Below are positions 4,483 to 62,152 of a stretch of 64,000 nt of DNA, piece after piece. Source of the stretch: Bacteroidales bacterium. GTDB lineage: Bacteria > Bacteroidota > Bacteroidia > Bacteroidales > UBA7960. Within the stretch, counting starts at the first letter, position 1; each line of letters starts with the position of its first letter. Below the pieces are notes generated by a model, which was given only the letters and a program-made list of their open reading frames with translations, did not search any database and was not told the DNA's origin. The DNA lies in contig PWJZ01000004.1 in the NCBI GenBank assembly GCA_003559855.1, positions 30,695-94,694 of the forward strand, written 5' to 3'. The position numbers and the translations under genes are program-made.

Positions 4483-5808
4483 ATGAACATAACAATTGTT
4501 GGAACCGGTTATGTAGGATTGGTGACGGGTGCTTGTTTTGCTGATATGGGTGCAGAGGTTACCTGTATTGATATAGACAGTTCAAAAATAGAAAACCTCA
4601 AAAAAAACATACTACCTATTTACGAACCGGGTCTTGATGTAATTGTAGGGCGTAATTGCAAAAGGAATAAGCTTAAATTTTCCACCGACCTCAAAAATTC
4701 GATACGGGAATGTGATGTTATTTTCATTGCCGTTGGCACTCCTCCCGATGAAGACGGAAGCGCTGACCTTGATCATGTGATAAGAGTGGCAGAAGAAATT
4801 GGCAAACACATTACAGGTTATATGGTTGTTGTAACCAAAAGCACGGTTCCTGTGGGCACGGCTGAAAAAGTACGTCAAGCAATAGACAGCCAGTTAAAAT
4901 CCCGCAAGCTTGATATCAAATTCGACATAGCCTCAAATCCGGAGTTCCTGAAAGAAGGTGCTGCTATTGATGATTTTATGAAGCCCGACAGGATAGTAAT
5001 CGGTATAGAATCCGAAAAAGGCCGTAAGATCATGGAAAAGTTGTACAAGCCATTCACCCTTAACGGGCATCCGATAATTTTCATGGACATTGCATCTGCC
5101 GAAATGACCAAATATGCAGCCAATGCAATGCTTGCAACAAGGATAAGCTTCATGAATGAAATTGCTAACCTGTGCGAAATTCTCGGAGCAGATATTAACA
5201 TGGTAAGAAAAGGTATTGGCAGCGATTCACGTATAGGTAATCAGTTTATTTATGCAGGTATAGGATATGGAGGCTCCTGTTTTCCAAAAGATGTTCGCGC
5301 TCTTATAAAAACCGCACGGCAGCATAATTATAAGATGCGCGTGGTACAAGCTGTTGAATATGTAAATGATCACCAGAAAACAGTGCTTGTCGATAAAATG
5401 AAAAAGCATTTTAAAAATAATCTTGACAGGCTTAATGTTGCAATCTGGGGGCTGGCATTTAAACCTCAAACCGACGATATGCGTGAAGCACCTTCACTGG
5501 CAATCATAGAAAAACTCCTCAAAGAAGGATGCAACATCACAGCTTTTGACCCGGAAGCTATGAAACAAGCACAAAAAATTACAGGAAATAAAATAACATA
5601 TGCAAAAAATAAAGAAGAAGCTGTTGCAAATGCCGACTGTCTGCTATTGATAACAGAATGGAATGTATTCCGTATACCCGATTTTAAAAAAATGTACGAA
5701 TTAATGAAGCAACCCGTGATTTTTGACGGGAGAAACATTTATAATGCCGATGAGCTTAAAACCATCGGATTTTTATATTACTGCGTGGGAAAAAGAACAC
5801 AAACATAA
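4483..5808 (+). CDS. ugd: UDP-glucose 6-dehydrogenase
   Basis: 441 aa. It has an N-terminal Rossmann motif (IVGTGYVGLVTG) and the catalytic-Cys motif GGSCFPKD. The C-terminal UDP-binding domain (WGLAFKPQTDDMREAP) is typical of the UDPGDH family. Confidence 0.9.
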   Translation: MNITIVGTGYVGLVTGACFADMGAEVTCIDIDSSKIENLKKNILPIYEPGLDVIVGRNCKRNKLKFSTDLKNSIRECDVIFIAVGTPPDEDGSADLDHVIRVAEEIGKHITGYMVVVTKSTVPVGTAEKVRQAIDSQLKSRKLDIKFDIASNPEFLKEGAAIDDFMKPDRIVIGIESEKGRKIMEKLYKPFTLNGHPIIFMDIASAEMTKYAANAMLATRISFMNEIANLCEILGADINMVRKGIGSDSRIGNQFIYAGIGYGGSCFPKDVRALIKTARQHNYKMRVVQAVEYVNDHQKTVLVDKMKKHFKNNLDRLNVAIWGLAFKPQTDDMREAPSLAIIEKLLKEGCNITAFDPEAMKQAQKITGNKITYAKNKEEAVANADCLLLITEWNVFRIPDFKKMYELMKQPVIFDGRNIYNADELKTIGFLYYCVGKRTQT

Positions 5809-6043
5809 ACAGGAAAAACCGTAAAAAAAATCCGGAATGTGGAACATTAATCACTGAATATGAAATACTGAACGCTCTGCCCGTCACAAACAATAGTAAA
5901 AAAATGCATGACGCCCTATATCAGGCAATAATATAAAAACAGTTGAAAAATGTATAAGGGTACATCGGGTTTAATTTATTGACGTTTATTTACACAAACA
6001 AATATTTTATTAAAAATCAGGTGTTTAATTATATTTTATTCAG

Positions 6044-21476: not shown

Positions 21477-22394
21477 TCAAAAGTAAACCCTTTCGATATC
21501 AAGCTTGCTGAGGTCAAGCGTGCCTATACCCATTTCTTCGGCAATACGCAGATACCCGATATCTTTGGGGTTGGAGCCGAACAACAATGTACTTGCAGCA
21601 TCGATAGCGACAATATCCGGTGATATAAGCAAACTTTCCATTCTTGTGAGGTCTGCGGTTGATACACCGCGAGGACCGTTGCGTGTCATAACAAAGTAGG
21701 CGTCTACAATGTTAAGTTGTGGTTTACGCTCATAAAGACAAAAATCTGCTATACATTGATGCAGGTTATTCCTGTGCCAAAAGCGACGGTCCCAAATAAT
21801 GCCCATCAAGTTTTTCATTGCAATGGTCAATGATGTAGAGCCATGATGCTTTAGCACGGGAACATTAATATAGAGATCCGACTCCAGTATCAATTCATGC
21901 ACTTTAACATCCTTAAGTCTTCTGGCGCCGGGAATGTCAACCGGATGATAATATCGTTCGAGATTACCCGGTACCATTTGCCCGTTTGCTGCACGTACAG
22001 CATCTTCAATTCCGCTGTTCTGGTATGACCGTCGCCAGTTATCGCATGTATTATCGAAAGATAAAACTCTCCTTGCTCCTGCCGCATAGCAACTTTCAAC
22101 GACTGCCTTCACCAGGTCCGGATTTGTATTTGCTGCACGCTCCGGTGAAACATCCCACCCGATGTTGGGCTTCACCACAACAGTCTGACCCCTCTTAACA
22201 AACCTGCCCATACCACCTATCTCTTCAATGCCGCGTTTGAACATAGTGACAGGATCCGATCCCCGTAAAGCAACCAAATCCGGCAAAGTACGTCCATGGC
22301 CGAATAACCTTGTGCCAAATCCCGAAACCGAAGCTATCAAACTCCCGGATAAACCATATAAAAAACTTTTCCTTAAAAATTCCCTCCTGTCCAT
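21477..22394 (-). CDS. DUF362 domain protein with twin-arginine signal peptide
   Basis: 305 aa. The N-terminus MDRREFLRKSFLYGLSG is a Tat-type motif. The remainder matches the DUF362 pattern as I recall it (VVKPNIGW...; HHGSTSLTIAMKNLMG). Confidence 0.65.
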   Translation of the reverse strand: MDRREFLRKSFLYGLSGSLIASVSGFGTRLFGHGRTLPDLVALRGSDPVTMFKRGIEEIGGMGRFVKRGQTVVVKPNIGWDVSPERAANTNPDLVKAVVESCYAAGARRVLSFDNTCDNWRRSYQNSGIEDAVRAANGQMVPGNLERYYHPVDIPGARRLKDVKVHELILESDLYINVPVLKHHGSTSLTIAMKNLMGIIWDRRFWHRNNLHQCIADFCLYERKPQLNIVDAYFVMTRNGPRGVSTADLTRMESLLISPDIVAIDAASTLLFGSNPKDIGYLRIAEEMGIGTLDLSKLDIERVYF

Positions 22395-22666
22395 ATTTTA
22401 TTTTTTTTTATTTCAATACAAATATATAAGGAAAGTTTAAAAATTCTTATTTTTGAAAAAAATTCTGTTATAAAACTTAATAATGTTGTTTTTAAAAATA
22501 ACAAAAACAACTAATTAAAATGCAAATTTTTTATAACAACGTATCGCAAACAACGTATATTTCAGAAAAGGCTAACCCGTCAAAGGTTGCCCGTATACCG
22601 TTATTTGAAAAAACAAATGAGATACTCATAGACCGGAGTTCGCAATGAACTCAGAATAGTGGTTTT

Positions 22667-22802
22667 ATGAGCAATGTGAGTAACCGACCTCATGAGCGAA
22701 AAGAGTTATGAAGCATGAGGATTCCATCGGTTTATAATCAATTATGCTTATTTGGAAGATATATATTATTGTAAATCAATATTTTAAACACATTTTATAC
22801 AG
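22667..22802 (+). promoter_or_regulatory. Conserved bipartite 5' leader element, copy A (hairpin, two mini-ORFs and an 18-nt start-proximal box)
   Basis: It shares two blocks with 26086-26219 at identical spacing and identical distance to the start codon. Block 1 (22709-22727) matches 17/19. Block 2 (22781-22798) matches 18/18. Details are in the findings. Confidence 0.55.
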
Positions 22803-23324
22803 ATGAAAACAAATATTGCAGTTAAAGCTATCAACATCAGGAAAAGTATTCCAACGGTTATATTTCATGCTTTTGCACTGGCTTTTATTTATCTGATACC
22901 TACTTTTTCTCATTTGTTAAGCTTTCCTTTATACTATATTGAGCCTATGAGGCTTATGGTGGTCATTGCCATCATACACAGCCACCGTTATAATGCATAT
23001 GCCCTGGCAATAACGCTGCCTTTGTTTTCATTTGCAGTGGCAGCACATCCGGTTTTCATCAAAAGCATACTGATCTCCATCGAATTGCTTTTCATGGTGT
23101 GGTTGTTTTACCGGTTGTCACAATACCTTAATAGTTTCGCAAACATTTTGCTAAGTATATGGGCTTCAAAGATTCTTTATTACGGATTAAAATACATAGC
23201 AATTCTTACATTGCTGCCAAAAGAACACCTTGTTGCAACCCCAATACACCTGCAAGTTATTACTTCTGTGGTTTTCAGCGCCTACCTTTTCGGTGTGTTG
23301 TATTACAGAAACCGTAAAAGCTGA
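22803..23324 (+). CDS. Integral membrane protein, function unknown (about 5 TM helices)
   Basis: 173-aa hydrophobic ORF. I recognise no diagnostic family motif. Confidence 0.6.
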   Translation: MKTNIAVKAINIRKSIPTVIFHAFALAFIYLIPTFSHLLSFPLYYIEPMRLMVVIAIIHSHRYNAYALAITLPLFSFAVAAHPVFIKSILISIELLFMVWLFYRLSQYLNSFANILLSIWASKILYYGLKYIAILTLLPKEHLVATPIHLQVITSVVFSAYLFGVLYYRNRKS

Positions 23325-23437
23325 AAATATTTTTCATCTTTATATAATAAACCGTTAACTGTACAAAACCAAAACAATAAAATTTACCTTACTCACGGTA
23401 TTTTATAATAGCCGGTTTCTTAAAATTAAGAATTTTC

Positions 23438-24010
23438 ATGATCATTATTGGTAATGCTATAGTTTCTGAGGATCTGCTTAATGTTCATTTCACCTGTGAC
23501 CTTGTAAAGTGTTCGGGTCGTTGCTGTGTGGAGGGTGAGGCTGGTGCACCTCTTACAGAAGATGAAACCGCTATATTGCAATCGATATACCCGTCAATAA
23601 AACCTTATTTGCCTTACAAAAGCCTGAAGTCAATAGCAAAACAGGGATTATTTGTAAAAGATTTTGAGGGTGAGCTTACCACACCGCTTATAGATAATAA
23701 GCACTGTGTTTATGCTTGTTTTGACGATGGAAAAATAGCAAGATGTGCAATAGAAAAAGCTTATTTCGATGGATTAATAAAATACCGGAAACCGCTTTCG
23801 TGCCACCTCTACCCTGTCAGAATAACTAAAAATAATTTATATGACGCTGTCAATTATCACAAATGGCATCTTTGCGGTCCAGCACGAAAGTATGGGAAAA
23901 AACTGAATATCCCAGTATATGAATTTGCAAAAGACGCACTTATAAGAAAATATGGCAATGAATGGTATAATGAATTTGCCAATATTGCAAAGGAACATAC
24001 GGAAAAATAA
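23438..24010 (+). CDS. DUF3109 family Cys-rich protein
   Basis: 190 aa. The N-terminal pattern is FTCDLVKCSGRCCVEGEAGAPLTEDE. It also has CAIEKAY...KPLSCHLYPVR, which matches my memory of Bacteroidota DUF3109. Confidence 0.65.
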   Translation: MIIIGNAIVSEDLLNVHFTCDLVKCSGRCCVEGEAGAPLTEDETAILQSIYPSIKPYLPYKSLKSIAKQGLFVKDFEGELTTPLIDNKHCVYACFDDGKIARCAIEKAYFDGLIKYRKPLSCHLYPVRITKNNLYDAVNYHKWHLCGPARKYGKKLNIPVYEFAKDALIRKYGNEWYNEFANIAKEHTEK

Positions 24011-24161
24011 AATAAAATTTTATGTTTGCTTCGTTTGATATTTATTTCTTTGCATTTTTTTGTACATGATCGCCTTTCAGGGTGCATTTGTGAATACTGC
24101 AACTTTCACTATCGCTCTTCCAGGCCATCTAAATCAACGGATCGAACATCGACAACAAAAA

Positions 24162-24599
24162 ATGAATATGAATAGCTTTATAAAACACCTTTTCGTACGT
24201 ACTTTTTCAGCGATCCTGCTTTTTAGCGTTTTTTATCCGGCATCATTCTCACATGTCTTTAATAAACCTGAAAAGCCGTTGCATCCGCAACTAAAAACCG
24301 ATACAAATATTATTCGATATGATACTATAATTCAGCACAGTAAAACAACACGGCGAATTACCATAACCAACCAGGGTAATGTTGCTTTGCGGATTTTCAA
24401 TATCAGGAGCTCATGCGGCATATCCGTCCCTTCATGGCCAAGACAACTTATTGAACCCGGAGAAAAAGCTTTTATACAAATGAGATATGATGCATCCAAT
24501 CCAGGGCCAATAAACCGTAAGATCATCATCCACAGCAATTCGCCCGAAGAGACAAAAATTATTAAAGTAAAGGGATATGTAATTCCGAAAGAAAAGTAA
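24162..24599 (+). CDS. DUF1573 domain protein (secreted)
   Basis: The track ORF begins at 24060. The ATG at 24162 (MNMNSFIKHLF...) gives a normal signal peptide. The core ITITNQGNVALRIFNIRSSCGISVPSWPRQLIEPGEKAFIQMRY matches the DUF1573 pattern (..N.G...L.I..V..SCGC..P.W....I.PG....I...). Confidence 0.7.
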   Translation: MNMNSFIKHLFVRTFSAILLFSVFYPASFSHVFNKPEKPLHPQLKTDTNIIRYDTIIQHSKTTRRITITNQGNVALRIFNIRSSCGISVPSWPRQLIEPGEKAFIQMRYDASNPGPINRKIIIHSNSPEETKIIKVKGYVIPKEK

Positions 24600-24607
24600 T
24601 TCGAATT

Positions 24608-25300
24608 ATGCAAACGTTCGCCGAAAAAGTCATCTCATTCAACAAAAACCTTAGGCTTGACATTGAACTTCCAAAGGATATCCGTGTGATGAACCCGTTT
24701 ACAGAGAATCCTGGGGCTCTGGCTGTATCATCAGCTTTTTACCGTAAGTATTACGATGATCATAAAAAACGTCATTTAATACTGGGCATAAACCCGGGGC
24801 GTTTTGGTGCTGGCGTAACGGGAGTGCCTTTTACCGATACAAAAAGATTGGGCGAAAAATGTGGCTTAAAAATAAAGAATTTAAGTACCCACGAACCATC
24901 ATCAGTTTTTGTTTATGAAGTAATTGACGCTTACGGAGGAGTTGAAAGGTTTTTTTCCGATTTCTACATAAACTCCCCAAGCCCCCTGGGATTTGTCAAA
25001 ACCAACAGCAAGGGTAAGCAGGTGAATTTCAACTACTACGACAGTAAAACTTTGCTCGACAAAATAGAAAAATTTCTTGTCAACTCAATTTGTGCACATA
25101 TAGACAAAGGAATCAATACCAACGTATGCTTTTGCATGGGTTCGGGTAAAAATTTCACTGTAATCAGCAGGATCAACAAAAAACATGATCTCTTCAAAAC
25201 GATAATCCCGCTTGAACACCCACGCTATATTATGCAATATAAATCAAAACATAAAAGGCACTATAGAGATAAATACCTGCTTTCTTTCAACTCTGTATAA
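24608..25300 (+). CDS. Uracil-DNA glycosylase superfamily protein (SMUG-like)
   Basis: 230 aa. The motif HLILGINPGRFGAGVTGVPFTD resembles UDG motif 1 of the SMUG-type enzymes (GMNPGPFG). Confidence 0.6.
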   Translation: MQTFAEKVISFNKNLRLDIELPKDIRVMNPFTENPGALAVSSAFYRKYYDDHKKRHLILGINPGRFGAGVTGVPFTDTKRLGEKCGLKIKNLSTHEPSSVFVYEVIDAYGGVERFFSDFYINSPSPLGFVKTNSKGKQVNFNYYDSKTLLDKIEKFLVNSICAHIDKGINTNVCFCMGSGKNFTVISRINKKHDLFKTIIPLEHPRYIMQYKSKHKRHYRDKYLLSFNSV

Positions 25301-25312
25301 AACAATCAAATA

Positions 25313-25348
25313 TCAAAAAAAAGCCGCTGCAAATTCGAGCGGCTTTTT
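25313..25348. terminator. Bidirectional rho-independent terminator between the convergent glycosylase and csp genes
   Basis: The arrangement is AAAAAAAA-GCCGCT-GCAAATTCG-AGCGGC-TTTTT. There is an A-run on one side and a T-run on the other. Confidence 0.65.
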
Positions 25349-25395
25349 AACCGGTTAAAAAAACAGACCATTACAGAATTCTTTCTGAAGATCAA

Positions 25396-25593
25396 CTATT
25401 CCGTTTTTAATTTCACATTTGTAGCGTTCAAACCTTTTCTACCTTCTACTAATTCGAAGGTCACATCGTCACCTTCTTTAACCCGGTCTACCAAGCCGGA
25501 AGCATGAACAAAGAATTCCTTGTCCGATTCCGAATCTTTTATAAATCCAAATCCTTTTAGTTCATTGAAGAACTTTACTATTCCAGTTTTCAT
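25396..25593 (-). CDS. Cold-shock protein (CspA family)
   Basis: 65 aa with RNP1 and RNP2 motifs (KGFGFI, FFVHAS). Confidence 0.9.
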   Translation of the reverse strand: MKTGIVKFFNELKGFGFIKDSESDKEFFVHASGLVDRVKEGDDVTFELVEGRKGLNATNVKLKTE

Positions 25594-26085
25594 AAATTTA
25601 ATATGTAATTGTGTTTTAAATTTGGTATTGAAAAACGCAAAAATTGAAGGGAATTATTCTGGCAAGGAAATTAATTCAATGATCAAATATGCGGTAAACA
25701 ATACCGTTTATTATTTTTTATCACCACAAAGGTAATTTAAAATTTCAAATAACCTGAAAAATATTTCAGAAAAGATAAATTTTTAAGAGTTTGAATTTAT
25801 TTTGCTTTAATTATCGTTGAGATTGGCTTTCCGGATATTAAAGCTTAAAACCACTGTTCTAGCGCATTTTGTTCAAATAATATTTGTGCTGGTGCTCAAC
25901 GATTTTTAAAATTTTATTTTCCGGCGAATCACTTATTTTAAAAATTAGCCGCTTCACAAACCCGAATTTTAATTTCATGTTATTTCAAACCAATCTATTT
26001 TTTAATTTTGCACGATATTTTTTGTAATTCAGTATGGTTAATTGCGGTGATTTCAAATGTCATTGCAAAAAATCCGGAATAAAAT

Positions 26086-26219
26086 ATGAAACCTTCATTT
26101 GCCAACTTCCACAAAAGGAAATAAGTGAAGCATGAGGGTTTCATGTATTAAGAACTGATAACGCAAACATTAATCAATATATGTTTTTAACAATAGGATT
26201 TTAAACACATTTTATTCGG
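26086..26219 (+). promoter_or_regulatory. Conserved bipartite 5' leader element, copy B (13-bp hairpin, two abutting mini-ORFs and an 18-nt start-proximal box)
   Basis: The stem pairs 26086-26098 with 26132-26144 (12 Watson-Crick pairs plus 1 G.U). Block 1 is 26126-26144 and block 2 is 26198-26215. See the findings. Confidence 0.55.
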
Positions 26220-27296
26220 ATGAAGCCAACGGGTATTCAAATAGCTGGCGAGTTCAAGGGTTGTTCCTCGGATATTTTGAACTGCCCGGAGACTCTTGAG
26301 CAACTTATCAACAAAGCCATTACCGACTCAGGCATGATGATGGTCAATATTATTTCACACCGTTTTGATCCGGTAGGCATAACTGTTGCCGCTATTCTCA
26401 GCGAATCTCATGTAGTTGTTCACACCTATCCCGAAGCCGAACATGCTTCGGTTGATATTTATACCTGCAGTTTTAACCCGGAACCGCCCAGGCGATTATT
26501 TGAATACCTTAAAAGAGGATTGCAGGCAAGGCGAATAAAGCATCTTGAAATACTTCGCGGAGATATTCTTGACAACAAAAAAACAAACCTTATAACCACT
26601 ACTGCGGGTAATGGTTTTGAGATACGTTATGAAATTGAACGTATGATCCTGAGTCAAAAAACAGATTTTCAGCAGATGGACATCATAGACAATGCGGTCT
26701 TCGGCAGGATGTTGTTTCTTGATAATGACCTTCAGATAGCCGATTCCGATGCATATATTTATAATGAGGCGATGATCGCCCCTTCAAGGCTGTTGGATAA
26801 AATAAACCGTAGCCTGATACTCGGAGGAGGCGATGGTGGCATTGCAAATCAATTGCTCAAGGAATCCGGCACTGAAATAACCCTTATTGACATTGACCCT
26901 CAGGTAATTCAAGCATGTAAAACCCATATACCAAAAGTGGCAGGAAATGCTTTTGAAAATAAACGCCTAAAAGTCATTAACAGCGATGCCGAAAAATTCC
27001 TCCAATCTGTTGAAAAAAAATATAATGCTATATTTTATGACCTTTCTATGCATCCCGAAATTTTTTCCGTTAAAAACAAAAAAACCTACCTTACCGACCT
27101 TTTCAGATCACTTGAAAAAACCCTGAAAAGCAATGGGATACTCTCTATGCAATGCTGTTCGGCATTCGACAGTGAAACACTTGAAATGATCAATAAAATA
27201 ATCCCGCAATTCTTCCAAAATGTCAACTATAAAGAAATATTCATCCCCTCATTTTGTGAACCCTGGGTGTTTGCTTCGGCAAGAGTTAATAGTTGA
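26220..27296 (+). CDS. Fusion protein: S-adenosylmethionine decarboxylase (SpeH/class 1b type) plus spermidine synthase-like aminopropyltransferase
   Basis: 358 aa. Residues 1 to about 115 align with small bacterial AdoMetDC, including the self-processing site LSES|HVVVHTYPE and DIYTC. The C-terminal 240 aa have an aminopropyltransferase pattern (LFLDNDLQIADSD..YNEAM, LILGGGDGG, LIDIDPQV). Confidence 0.8.
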   Translation: MKPTGIQIAGEFKGCSSDILNCPETLEQLINKAITDSGMMMVNIISHRFDPVGITVAAILSESHVVVHTYPEAEHASVDIYTCSFNPEPPRRLFEYLKRGLQARRIKHLEILRGDILDNKKTNLITTTAGNGFEIRYEIERMILSQKTDFQQMDIIDNAVFGRMLFLDNDLQIADSDAYIYNEAMIAPSRLLDKINRSLILGGGDGGIANQLLKESGTEITLIDIDPQVIQACKTHIPKVAGNAFENKRLKVINSDAEKFLQSVEKKYNAIFYDLSMHPEIFSVKNKKTYLTDLFRSLEKTLKSNGILSMQCCSAFDSETLEMINKIIPQFFQNVNYKEIFIPSFCEPWVFASARVNS

Positions 27297-61948: not shown

Positions 61949-62152
61949 CAAAGTGATAAAACTTCAAAAATCTAAAACCGGTGTTCCTTATTCGTTATTA
62001 AAATAACATTTATATTAATTATAATGGCGTTTTACTGACAAAAAACAATAAAAGGATTATGAAACCCTCATGTTTTAATAACACAAACACAACATTAATA
62101 AAATAAGCAAGATAAGGGTTCGATCATACCAATTAAAACAAATTTTACTAGG

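Follow-up and report, generated by a model that had tools for sequence, protein, structure and literature searches.

Correia-type MITEs carry terminal inverted repeats and a short target-site duplication (TA for Correia elements), and PATEs are non-autonomous IS200/IS605 derivatives that use peel-and-paste single-strand transposition. IS200/IS605 elements and PATEs are treated in three papers (PMC6006769, PMC10055086, PMC3119063), and REP and REPIN sequences, with their RAYT transposases, in two others (PMC3116915, PMC2817692). REPs are GC-rich palindromes of 20-40 bp, usually located 3′ of genes, often arranged as inverted doublets and marked by a GTAG or CGTC tag (PMC3733652). Correia elements and similar MITEs (ERIC, RUP, BOX) are co-transcribed with adjacent genes, whose expression they can alter, and sometimes overlap ORF starts (PMC3575422). 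Putative mobile promoters (Matus-Garcia, Nijveen and van Passel, 2012) are highly similar upstream sequences found before non-homologous genes of a single genome; the class is operational, covers positions -150 to -50 and is mechanistically heterogeneous (PMC3575422). Our full-text literature search found such related classes and no description of the repeat family reported here.

We analysed a stretch of 64,000 nucleotides from a Bacteroidales bacterium (contig PWJZ01000004.1), hereafter the window. The first-pass annotation had pointed to one bipartite element common to the leaders of two unrelated genes, coding for a membrane protein (copy A) and a speD-speE fusion (copy B). This common element is real. 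It is not a switch specific to the two genes, since the repeat of about 135 bases sits before many unrelated genes. Copies A and B, together with two further copies (C and D), are probably old members of a dispersed, non-autonomous repeat family of about 135 nt that is found in Bacteroidales and related Bacteroidota and would target ATGAA.

The repeat unit and its copies in the window

The unit is about 135 nt long and non-coding, with stops in all frames. It begins with a 5′ arm, (A)TGAAACCCTCAT, followed by a loop of about 32 nt that includes ACAAAAG..ATGAAT.AAA and by a 3′ arm, CATGAGGGTTCCATGG, which corresponds to block 1 of the first-pass annotation and completes a hairpin of 13-14 bp. 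This CATGAGGGTTCCATGG segment is nearly invariant across the family. After the 3′ arm come an AT-rich spacer of about 55 nt, the 3′ terminus ..TTTAA..TTTTAT(A/T)CNR, which is block 2, and a final (A/G)TGAA(A). The inverted repeat occupies unit positions 1-13 and 46-58, that is, it is internal, and the two ends of the unit, of which the 3′ one reads ..TTTTATACAA, are not complementary to each other.

Four copies lie in the window in the order D, A, B, C, each terminating at the ATG of some gene (Table 1). The two blocks of copies A and B were recovered as first described: block 1 is identical at 17 of 19 positions (22709-22727, TGAAGCATGAGGATTCCAT, against 26126-26144, TGAAGCATGAGGGTTTCAT) and block 2 at all 18 (22781-22798 against 26198-26215, ATTTTAAACACATTTTAT), the offset between blocks is 72 nt in both copies, and block 2 is separated by 4 nt from ATG 22803 or ATG 26220. 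The hairpins proposed for the two leaders were also found. In copy A, CCTCATG (22688-22694) pairs with CATGAGG (22714-22720) and the outer ACCGA with TCGGT; in copy B, ATGAAACCTTCAT (26086-26098) pairs with ATGAGGGTTTCAT (26132-26144) over 13 bp, including one G-U.

Table 1. Positions of the repeat copies, their parts and neighbouring features in the window
Feature	Coordinates	Strand	Remarks
Copy D	5908..6043	+	Ends at ATG 6044 of a 312-aa NAD-dependent epimerase/dehydratase-type gene
-7 box match TATTTTTG	22448..22455	+	Upstream of copy A; kept in relatives
Probable remnant of a further unit's spacer, leader A	22488..22531	+	blastn against unit spacers
Copy A	22681..22802	+	Ends at ATG of the 173-aa membrane protein gene; degenerate
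Copy A, 5′ arm remnant ACCGACCTCATG	22683..22694	+	Pairs with 22714-22731 in the MFE fold
Copy A, block 1 CATGAGGATTCCATCGGT (loop end and 3′ arm)	22709..22731	+	Aligns to CATGAGGGTTCCATGG
Copy A, block 2 plus 4 nt ATTTTAAACACATTTTATACAG (unit 3′ terminus)	22781..22802	+	Adjoins ATG
173-aa membrane protein gene	22803..23324	+	Homologues widespread in Bacteroidales
-7 box match TAATTTTG	26003..26010	+	76 nt upstream of copy B, in a block conserved with relative L003
Copy B	26086..26219	+	Ends at ATG of the speD-speE fusion; the best-preserved of the four copies
Copy B, 5′ arm ATGAAACCTTCAT	26086..26098	+	Opens mini-ORF 26086-26124 (MKPSFANFHKRK, then stop)
Copy B, block 1 (3′ arm) CATGAGGGTTTCATGT	26126..26146	+	
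Copy B, block 2 plus 4 nt (unit 3′ terminus)	26198..26219	+	
speD-speE fusion gene	26220..27296	+	AdoMet decarboxylase and spermidine synthase
Copy C, short variant	62059..62152	+	Ends at ATG 62153 of an enoyl-CoA hydratase gene
Copy C, 5′ arm ATGAAACCCTCAT	62059-62071		
Copy C, 3′ arm	62111-62124		Decayed
Copy C, block-2-like end	62133-62152		

The copies differ in their degree of preservation. Copy B matched the family profile across positions 1-141 (nhmmer, E=1.3e-16) and its hairpin reached a CM score of 67.1 bits (E=4.5e-17). Copy A was matched by the profile at 22689-22807 (nhmmer, E=4.6e-11), with a hairpin CM score of 13.4 bits at 22681-22731; a deletion has shortened its loop by about 14 nt, its 5′ edge is fixed only to about 8 nt, and its 3′ terminus is that of the soda-lake subfamily (L012-L016, L042, L062, L067). 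The gene behind it encodes a protein assigned to no Pfam or NCBIfam family. The hairpin of copy C scored 22.6 bits (E=6e-4), and the same short form occurs at L046, L076, L077, L086 and L127. In copy D both arms are decayed (5908-5919 and 5954-5965) and the 3′ end TGTTTAATTATATTTTATTCAG is well kept, with a CM score of 14.5 bits and an nhmmer match to profile positions 37-141. Further upstream in leader A, positions 22488-22531 resemble the unit spacers of L079 (85% across 46 nt, E=7e-6) and L017 (81%, E=1e-3; blastn). An additional degenerate unit at 22546-22672 was discarded for want of profile support, only 22488-22531 matching a unit spacer.

Allowing up to 3 mismatches, the window has 3 occurrences of block 1 where 0.09 would be expected (0 of 100 shuffles). 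Taken by itself, block 2 makes a weaker case, its 2 occurrences comparing with 0.56 expected and being reached by 11 of 100 shuffles. The decisive evidence that the shared blocks are not due to chance is the hundreds of homologous copies outside the window. Copies C and D, within it, had escaped the first-pass annotation. That annotation had explained the dissimilar stretch between the blocks by selection on two separate blocks, and not by a recent duplication. The dissimilarity stands, the spacers of A and B being only 49% identical, yet the spacers are 74-76% identical to those of other family members, and the stretch proved homologous to the family once gaps were allowed, with A and B falling in different sublineages. 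As judged from sequence, A and B are old copies of these different sublineages, sharing the family-wide stem and the subfamily 3′ end, and the two blocks are the parts of them that have been retained best.

Scanning for the bipartite pattern identified the unit on 8 soda-lake metagenome contigs, and scanning for the hairpin pattern at 117 or more genome loci; the matches listed came from about 40 MAGs, mostly Bacteroidales, and included 15 loci in Tobar14m-G12 and 13 in CSSed10_302R1. Family matches numbered 155 by nhmmer and 243 by CM, both strands counted. Units also form tandem arrays with a period of about 135 nt and up to 5 units, and are often located at contig ends, as expected of repeats, whose assembly may be imperfect, every carrier being a MAG. 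No phage or plasmid carriage was detected in IMG/VR (exact pattern), INPHARED or PLSDB (blastn). No recurrent transposase or recombinase appeared among 132 neighbouring ORFs in 8-kb locus pieces of the two richest genomes. Nor did 0.92 Mb of loci contain a longer element in which the hairpin and the 3′ end are 0.4-3 kb apart. Mobility is accordingly presumed.

The pairing of the stem is maintained by compensatory change, as in AACATCCAT/ATGGATGTT and ACCTGCAT/ATGCAGGT. In total, 88.6% of cells pair and double changes were seen at 8 of 14 pairs, in a sample biased by the scan, which demanded perfect arm cores. The earlier description of block 1 as a hairpin arm with conserved complementarity thus extends to the family.

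Start codons, target word and differences between genomes

We then examined what follows the units. Among 102 units with an intact 3′ end, 55 led at their terminal RTG into a long ORF, 28 into another unit and 19 into neither. The first start of an ORF of at least 60 aa most often lies 79-84 nt from the stem. The downstream genes are unrelated and comprise at least 50 housekeeping genes, those for LpxB, TrmD, a tRNA synthetase, PurE, AraA and HemE among them. Unit orientation always matches that of the downstream gene; about 4 copies face convergent genes or precede nothing. A function as terminator of the upstream gene was rejected on two grounds: the units lack a T-run, and 33 of 96 have a divergent gene as upstream neighbour.

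In a subfamily ending in GTG, all 11 downstream genes start with that GTG, and the 5′ edge of the first unit is ATG in 12 of 13 cases. LpxB-like orthologues located behind a unit (L058, L073, L082) start with GTGAAATAT, and the unit-free orthologue L132 with ATGAAGTAC. It thus looks as if the start codon comes with the element: genes behind GTG units use GTG, while ATG is found at the 5′ edge and in the unit-free orthologue. TGAA is the invariant word flanking the unit, and the tandem junction in L117 reads GTGAAACCC. Unit-free orthologues of the A, B and D genes start with ATGAAA; one empty orthologue (L061) starts with ATGTAC, not ATGAA. From the junctions and 4 of 5 empty orthologues, we infer that (A)TGAA would be the target word. 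C is enriched at -3 in the 5′ flanks of first units, as at the unit's own end, and could represent either an extended target or leftovers of earlier units. A variable target-site duplication was dismissed, as the 5′ flank and the 3′ end of a given copy do not match, nor do longer flanks.

Units share a median identity of 86-94% within a genome against 65-70% between genomes. Their presence also differs at orthologous sites: the closest syntenic relatives have no unit at either leader (A or B), and the same genome has units elsewhere (L062, L067). These comparisons of filled and empty sites involve genomes with barely alignable intergenic DNA, and no insertion polymorphism among near-identical strains came to light.

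These observations are at odds with the functions first proposed for the two leaders. A gene-specific riboswitch or attenuator does not account for a unit that stands before so many unrelated housekeeping genes and in tandem arrays, is missing from both orthologous leaders in the closest relatives, and varies little from end to end among the copies of one genome, unlike between genomes. A polyamine or SAM riboswitch for speD-speE was likewise rejected, the identical unit type also preceding LpxB, TrmD, PurE and others. A leader-peptide sensor is not supported either. The mini-ORFs 22667-22711 and 22708-22737 are present in the sequence but incidental: such ORFs stop at varying positions and range from 12 to more than 25 codons, and their 'MKPS' and 'MKHE' starts are set by the stem and loop sequence. 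In copy B, the ATG of the 5′ arm would be a former start codon, and mini-ORF 26086-26124, which it opens, is incidental.

We propose that insertion proceeds as follows. The element would integrate at a TGAA core, typically where a gene begins with Met-Lys or Met-Asn and so reads ATGAA(A). The 5′ arm would then open with the gene's old ATG, now held in the stem at the head of a junk mini-ORF, and the terminal RTGAA of the element would provide the new start codon. This start would be preceded by the last 80 or so nt of the element, whose AT-rich and weakly structured sequence may suit the Shine-Dalgarno-less initiation of Bacteroidia. The unit would be transcribed within the 5′ UTR of the host gene, and the mobilising enzyme would presumably act in trans. 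Insertions elsewhere in genes would be purged, so that copies remain at start codons, at unit junctions (tandems) and at a few intergenic ATGAA. We tentatively put forward, as one possible reading, that the family represents an undescribed class of selfish DNA adapted to Shine-Dalgarno-less Bacteroidia, which homes to ATGAA starts, buries the old start and supplies a new start with its initiation region, making insertion near-harmless. The units would then have come under purifying selection, and may have been co-opted as a portable 5′ leader tuning translation or mRNA stability of many housekeeping genes.

Evidence for and against other readings

The unit might instead be a structured cis-regulatory leader RNA (a hairpin, perhaps with a pseudoknot) that controls translation or stability and was recruited at many genes because it is useful, its proliferation being secondary or selected. 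We consider this unlikely, with several observations in its favour. The Bacteroidetes -7 promoter box, known from Bacteroides promoters, has the consensus TAnnTTTG. The match upstream of copy A places this copy within an inferred 5′ UTR and, in general, units lie within inferred 5′ UTRs, downstream of conserved -7 boxes. The compensatory changes in the stem also fit an RNA, as does the slow evolution of orthologous units: L058 and L073 are 92% identical over the unit against 52.5% at four-fold sites, with 64% in the 5′ flank. Such conservation, far above neutral, points to constraint or homogenisation and not to inert junk. In addition, the same genes carry units in distant genomes (the LpxB-like L058/L073/L082; the copy D gene and L022; L012 and L050).

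The structural evidence for a leader RNA is mixed. The 3′ part of the loop complements the pre-start segment slightly better when both belong to one unit (-2.97 kcal/mol) than when they are taken from different units (-2.28 kcal/mol; permutation p=0.004, kinship ignored), giving a hint of a loop-to-pre-start pseudoknot. Similarly, the pre-ATG bases of copy B pair with the 5′ flank in its MFE fold (z=-3.3). However, RNAalifold and pair counts supported a single core stem and no multi-helix architecture, and the whole-unit folds have z-scores of mostly -0.3 to -1.8. Candidate inner loop hairpins P2/P3 (CTGCA/TGCAG, GTTAC/GTAAC, CCACA/TGTGG) were abandoned: their registers clash among subfamilies and RNAalifold gave them no support. 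No Rfam family reached its gathering score in the window or at 15 further loci, and at E<=10 nothing was reported on the units in 22300-26400 and one tandem array, in line with the initial remark that no Rfam family could be recognised. Also against a leader RNA are the conserved A.C mismatch in the sense-strand stem, the functional incoherence of the downstream genes, the arrays of up to 5 units, spacers near-identical inside one genome, the unit-free orthologous leaders of the nearest relatives and the roughly 4 copies that precede convergent genes or nothing.

There is a slim chance that the unit is a mobile promoter, which would bring its own promoter, possibly giving a leaderless or very short-leader mRNA, and rewire transcription of the target gene. 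Other small repeats and 'putative mobile promoters' provide documented precedents (PMC3575422). In about 16 of 43 representative units TAnnTTTA lies 4-5 nt before the start codon, with ATTG about 18 nt further upstream in several subfamilies, as read off the alignment. But TAnnTTTG itself occurs in 2 of the 43, at no fixed place, even the TA is missing from the soda-lake subfamily, to which copies A and B belong, and conserved host promoters stand upstream of both A and B.

Slimmer still is the chance that the bottom strand is the functional one, either as an antisense small RNA family or as a single-stranded DNA hairpin recombination substrate like integron attC. Read on the bottom strand, the A.C mismatch of the top strand is a G.T wobble (115 of 149 sequences), and the bottom-strand hairpin is the stabler in 39 of 43 representatives (RNA, -20.2 against -15.2 kcal/mol; DNA, -8.7 against -7.6 kcal/mol). 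This signal is, however, effectively one inherited feature counted repeatedly. Moreover, the loop and 3′ half are conserved strand-specifically and tied to the downstream gene, the CM scores sense matches at 40-84 bits against 19-38 for antisense, and the attC core motifs RYYYAAC and GTTRRRY are absent. The single-stranded DNA version would be compatible with a dispersed repeat targeting ATGAA, and is in that sense not a rival to it.

We give hardly any credence to a transcription-factor operator (a CATGA-N5-TCATG palindrome in block 1) with a promoter-proximal box, since the CATGA-N5-TCAT(G) found within block 1 of copies B and C is the stem sequence read through, and neither copy A nor the family consensus (GGTTCCAT) has it in perfect form. 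An operator would have no need of arms that co-vary at a distance of 45 nt, the full 135 nt is repeated and not the site alone, and the gene set is incoherent; nor do the tandem arrays and the many unrelated downstream genes support an operator specific to the two genes first noted.

Significance and comparison with known systems

For annotation, these units of about 135 nt account for 'conserved leaders' of unrelated genes in Bacteroidales MAGs, as well as for long 5′ UTRs, strings of very short ORFs, rare GTG starts and broken contigs, and they should not be labelled riboswitches. If the units behave as proposed, a mobile element would target the start codon and repair the damage with a new start and initiation region, an unusual way to harmless insertion, and its units would be natural translation-initiation cassettes for a phylum without Shine-Dalgarno pairing. 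The 92% identity of orthologous copies, against 52.5% at four-fold sites, raises the question of host domestication, which can now be tested.

The unit resembles PATEs in being small, non-coding and multi-copy, in having neither terminal inverted repeats nor a target-site duplication, in its conserved imperfect hairpin near one end, and in a short target word kept at the left flank, here putatively (A)TGAA. Unlike for PATEs, the loci yielded neither a TnpA, TnpB or IscB gene nor a longer element bounded by these ends, and there was no match to the Rfam IS605 or HEARO RNA motifs. The strong hairpin is at the left end only, no conserved right-end hairpin being seen; the target word would be part of the stem, not outside a subterminal hairpin, and the unit ends in a start codon used by the host gene.

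With REPs and REPINs the unit shares the character of abundant extragenic palindromic repeats that are homogeneous within a genome, long-persisting and transcribed with their neighbours. It differs by its length of 135 nt, its 13-bp stem and 32-nt loop and the absence of a GTAG or CGTC tag, and by lying 5′ of genes, in one orientation and in direct tandems. Like Correia, ERIC, RUP and BOX elements, the units are of 100-150 nt and scattered through intergenic regions, and they are small, non-coding and numerous as MITEs are, with at least 13-15 loci in single MAGs. Unlike in MITEs, the inverted repeat is internal and the 3′ end unrelated to the 5′ end, and the flanking TGAA is invariant, with ATG at the 5′ edge against GTG at the 3′ end in one subfamily.

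The resemblance to integron attC sites lies in the imperfect hairpin, the variable loop length, the mismatch favouring the fold of one strand, the position shortly upstream of the next ORF start and, putatively, a crossover in a short shared core. In contrast to attC, the arms ATGAAACCCTCAT and ATGAGGGTTCCAT contain no RYYYAAC or GTTRRRY cores, and the units are distributed chromosome-wide before housekeeping genes, with no cassette arrays and no integrase nearby. Finally, as with putative mobile promoters, near-identical sequence is found upstream of non-homologous genes in one genome. Identity of at least 80% over at least 50 nt holds among the units of Tobar14m-G12, CSSed10_302R1 and others (median 86-94%), and does not hold for copy A against copy B, with their 49% spacer identity. 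Unlike members of that class, the unit has no recognisable promoter box, and it reaches as far as the start codon and includes it.

Two leaders and their counterparts in relatives

The first-pass annotation had proposed a conserved two-block leader element upstream of a membrane-protein gene (gene A) and of the speD-speE fusion (gene B), and its measurements held: block 1 is identical at 17 of 19 positions and block 2 at 18 of 18, copies A and B share a 72-nt offset between the blocks and a gap of 4 nt from the end of block 2 to the ATG. The hairpins of both copies were confirmed (in copy A, CCTCATG with CATGAGG and outer ACCGA with TCGGT), and both mini-ORFs claimed for leader A are present. 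The interpretation fared differently. A regulatory role specific to these two genes is unsupported; the two blocks are the visible tip of a dispersed repeat family of ~135 nt, lying directly against start codons. Allowing up to three mismatches, the window holds three occurrences of block 1, where 0.09 would be expected.

Features of the window and layout of the repeat unit
Feature	Position or length	Description
Copy A	22681-22802	Block 1 22709-22727, block 2 22781-22798; ATG 22803
Copy B	26086-26219	ATGAAACCTTCAT (26086-26098) pairs with ATGAGGGTTTCAT (26132-26144); block 1 26126-26144, block 2 26198-26215; ATG 26220
Copy C	62059-62152	Absent from the first-pass annotation; ends ..TTTTACTAGG directly before ATG 62153, enoyl-CoA hydratase
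Copy D	5908-6043	Absent from the first-pass annotation; ends TTTTATTCAG directly before ATG 6044, NAD epimerase/dehydratase type
-7 box match in promoter-like segment, gene A	22448-22455	TATTTTTG
-7 box match in promoter-like segment, gene B	26003-26010	TAATTTTG
Spacer-like match, leader A	22488-22531	44 nt
GC-richer segment, leader A	22546-22672	Three small hairpins: GGCTAACC..GGTTGCC, ATGAG-ATA-CTCAT, GAGTTCGCAATGAACTC
GC-rich hairpin	25326-25343	GCTGCAAATTCGAGCGGC; A-runs before, T-runs after; between convergent UDG-like (+) and cold-shock (-) genes
speD-speE fusion	26220-27296	Single 358-aa ORF
Unit, 5' arm		(A)TGAAACCCTCAT
Unit, loop	~32 nt	Conserved ACAAAAG and ATGAAT.AAA
Unit, 3' arm (block 1)		CATGAGGGTTCCATGG
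Unit, spacer	~55 nt	AT-rich; differs by subfamily
Unit, 3' terminus (block 2)		..TTTAA..(A/T)TTTAT(A/T)CNR
Unit, end		Final (A/G)TGAA(A)

The gene A product (173 aa) has 396 homologues, mainly in Bacteroidales, and no Pfam or NCBIfam family. Contigs encoding its nearest homologues (68-78% amino-acid identity) served as relatives. One of them, L003, has the gene order of the window (DUF362, membrane protein, DUF3109, DUF1573, CSD, speD-speE, MscS), and neither block is present in L003 to L008. A promoter-like segment further upstream is conserved for both genes. The Bacteroidetes -7 box consensus is TAnnTTTG, and both segments contain a match to it. The distance from this landmark to the ATG is 353 nt for gene A in the window versus 46-127 nt in relatives, and 239 nt versus 142 nt for gene B. 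Since the window leaders are longer and the relatives are without blocks, the blocks sit in lineage-specific extra leader sequence. The genome of L003 carries no unit at leaders A and B, yet has units elsewhere (L062, L067).

The spacer of copy B is 76% identical to that of the unit in L067 and the spacer of copy A 74% identical to that in L080, against only 49% between A and B. These spacers resemble other units rather than each other, which explains why two islands of identity stood out from background-like sequence at first pass. The 44-nt stretch in leader A resembles the spacer found in units of L079 and L017 (85%, E=7e-6), and this leader seems to hold remains of more than one unit.

Several other features were observed in the region. 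The GC-richer segment of leader A has no counterpart in relatives and no match to the repeat profile or to Rfam. The fusion joins speD (S-adenosylmethionine decarboxylase) and speE (spermidine synthase) and is followed by an MscS-type channel gene; fusion and gene order are kept in L003 (80% identity). The GC-rich hairpin between the convergent genes looks like a bidirectional terminator and was the source of the region's only weak Rfam sRNA look-alike hits.

Extent of the family and structure of its units

The search for further copies carrying both blocks, suggested at first pass, was made with a relaxed bipartite pattern (CATGAGGNTTNCAT-N45-60-TTTAAACAC) and matched eight metagenome contigs. 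Every one of them comes from soda-lake sediment; six are new, and the other two represent copies A and B in another sample. The window itself derives from a Bacteroidales MAG of Kulunda soda-lake sediment. Homology in the matched contigs reaches well past both blocks, and they show ATGAAACCCTCAT coming after block 2, a sequence that forms the next unit's 5' arm; units stand in tandem in L014 and L009. A hairpin-only pattern (AAACCCTCAT-N26-38-CATGAGGGTT), in which block 2 plays no part, found at least 117 loci in species-representative genomes. Among the matches listed, hosts are nearly all MAGs of Bacteroidales or Bacteroidota; Tobar14m-G12 has 15 loci, CSSed10_302R1 13 and binchicken_co13_31 11. 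A nucleotide profile from 73 units gave 155 copies in 0.92 Mb of loci and matched copies A (E=4.6e-11) and B (E=1.3e-16), while a covariance model (CM) of the hairpin scored B at 67 bits, C (62056-62128) at 22.6 bits and D (5905-5969) at 14.5 bits. Copy C is shorter and lacks the long spacer, a form also found in L046, L076, L077, L086 and L127. It is near certain that the units are a repeat family.

Some MAGs that carry units bear the labels Helicobacteraceae, Kosmotogaceae, Chlorobiota and Chitinophaga (L092, L095, L055/L082, L046 and related loci), which could reflect mis-binning, mislabelling or horizontal spread.

RNAalifold predicted the stem core alone and whole-unit folds had modest z-scores; the stem is the sole robust structure predicted for the unit. 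The covariance test proposed for it came out positive: in an alignment of 149 distinct sequences to the CM, pairing holds in 88.6% of cells and double changes occur at 8 of 14 pairs, and no shuffle reaches the observed covariation score. Clear compensatory variants, which come from secondary copies not selected by the search pattern, include AACATCCAT/ATGGATGTT (L117) and ACCTGCAT/ATGCAGGT (L086, L056). Stem position 4 is a conserved A.C mismatch on the sense strand in 115 of the 149 (in the window, 26089/26141 is an exception with A-T). On the opposite strand the mismatch becomes a G.T wobble, and as a consequence 39 of 43 representatives have their more stable hairpin on the bottom strand; this is one inherited feature and not 43 independent observations.

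Additional repeats were seen next to some units. In two minus-strand units of one MAG (L109:7730-7870 and L106, ~5540-5610), a GC-rich mini-palindrome, TCTCCCGCTCAAGCGGGACAGGC, directly follows the 3' arm and looks like a second, nested small repeat. In L013 (10690-10740 and 10905-10920), a unit is closely preceded by iteron-like 12-nt repeats in tandem, ACTGTGGAATAA (at least 3 copies), and closely followed by the related CTGTGGGATAA, and in L063:2706-2820 GC-rich degenerate ~12-nt repeats (..AGCGGCCCACCTGGCAACGACCCACCTGGCAGCGATCTACCTG..) replace the usual spacer after the hairpin.

Start codons and putative insertion

Measured from the stem, the first start of an ORF of at least 60 aa shows a sharp peak at 79-84 nt; secondary peaks lie at 215-216 nt, where there is one extra unit, and at 33-71 nt in short subfamilies. 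After 102 intact 3' ends, a long ORF begins exactly at the terminal RTG in 55, another unit follows in 28, and neither in 19 (~10 of these with a same-strand gene 20-250 nt on, ~4 facing a convergent gene). In a GTG subfamily (L050, L058, L073, L074, L079, L080, L082 and others) units end ..TTATTCTA then GTGAAA; all 11 long ORFs behind such ends start at that GTG, and the 5' edge of first units is ATG in 12 of 13. The tandem-pair junction in L117 is GTGAAACCC. LpxB-like orthologues with a unit (L058, L073, L082) begin GTG AAA TAT (M K Y), and the one without (L132) begins ATG AAG TAC (M K Y). For genes A, B and D, orthologues lacking a unit start ATGAAA; one other empty orthologue, L061, starts ATGTAC.

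The word common to both unit ends is TGAA; the preceding base comes from the target at the left and from the element at the right, and with these different origins there is no target-site duplication. We infer, with good support, that ATGAA is probably the insertion site and that the start codon probably comes from the unit. Integration would occur within or just after (A)TGAA of the start codon; the 5' arm would then open with the old ATG, and the start would be restored by the RTGAA at the element's end. Tandem arrays would arise by insertion at the junction of an existing copy.

A unit might also have been co-opted as a leader, its stem masking the old start codon or stabilising the mRNA. 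Whole-unit identity is 86-94% (median) within a genome versus 65-70% between genomes. Orthologous units of L058 and L073 are 92% identical, against 52.5% at four-fold degenerate sites of the adjacent orthologous gene and 64% in the 60-nt 5' flank, and units recur at three gene families in distant genomes; both points keep co-option in play. They speak against inert copies and would reflect purifying selection, gene conversion or else hot spots at which insertion was repeated. The carrier genes, which the first-pass annotation had advised examining, do not bear out a gene-specific leader: 50 downstream proteins hit 69 different Pfam families (LpxB three times, TrmD, class I tRNA synthetase, PurE, AraA, HemE and alkaline phosphatase among them). 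The upstream neighbour points the same way as the downstream gene in 63 cases and is divergent in 33, and because of the latter a terminator of the upstream gene was rejected.

Relation to known repeat classes

Rfam searches gave no family match, in line with the first-pass annotation. Only 2 of 43 units contain TAnnTTTG, and the family has no terminal inverted repeats, GTAG or CGTC tag, or attC cores. They were not found in IMG/VR (exact pattern), INPHARED or PLSDB (blastn). There was no transposase among the 50 downstream proteins (Pfam), no recurrent one among 132 neighbouring ORFs, and no long element with the unit's ends was seen in the examined loci. Full-text literature searches turned up related classes, namely REP/REPIN, PATE, MITE and putative mobile promoters (PMC3575422), and no account of this repeat family. 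In behaviour the unit would most resemble target-specific, non-autonomous elements of the IS200/IS605-PATE type. Of the features that define PATEs, a conserved right-end hairpin and a TnpA gene were not found in the loci examined, and the repeat is therefore placed outside every named family and filed as a new form within the small bacterial dispersed repeats.
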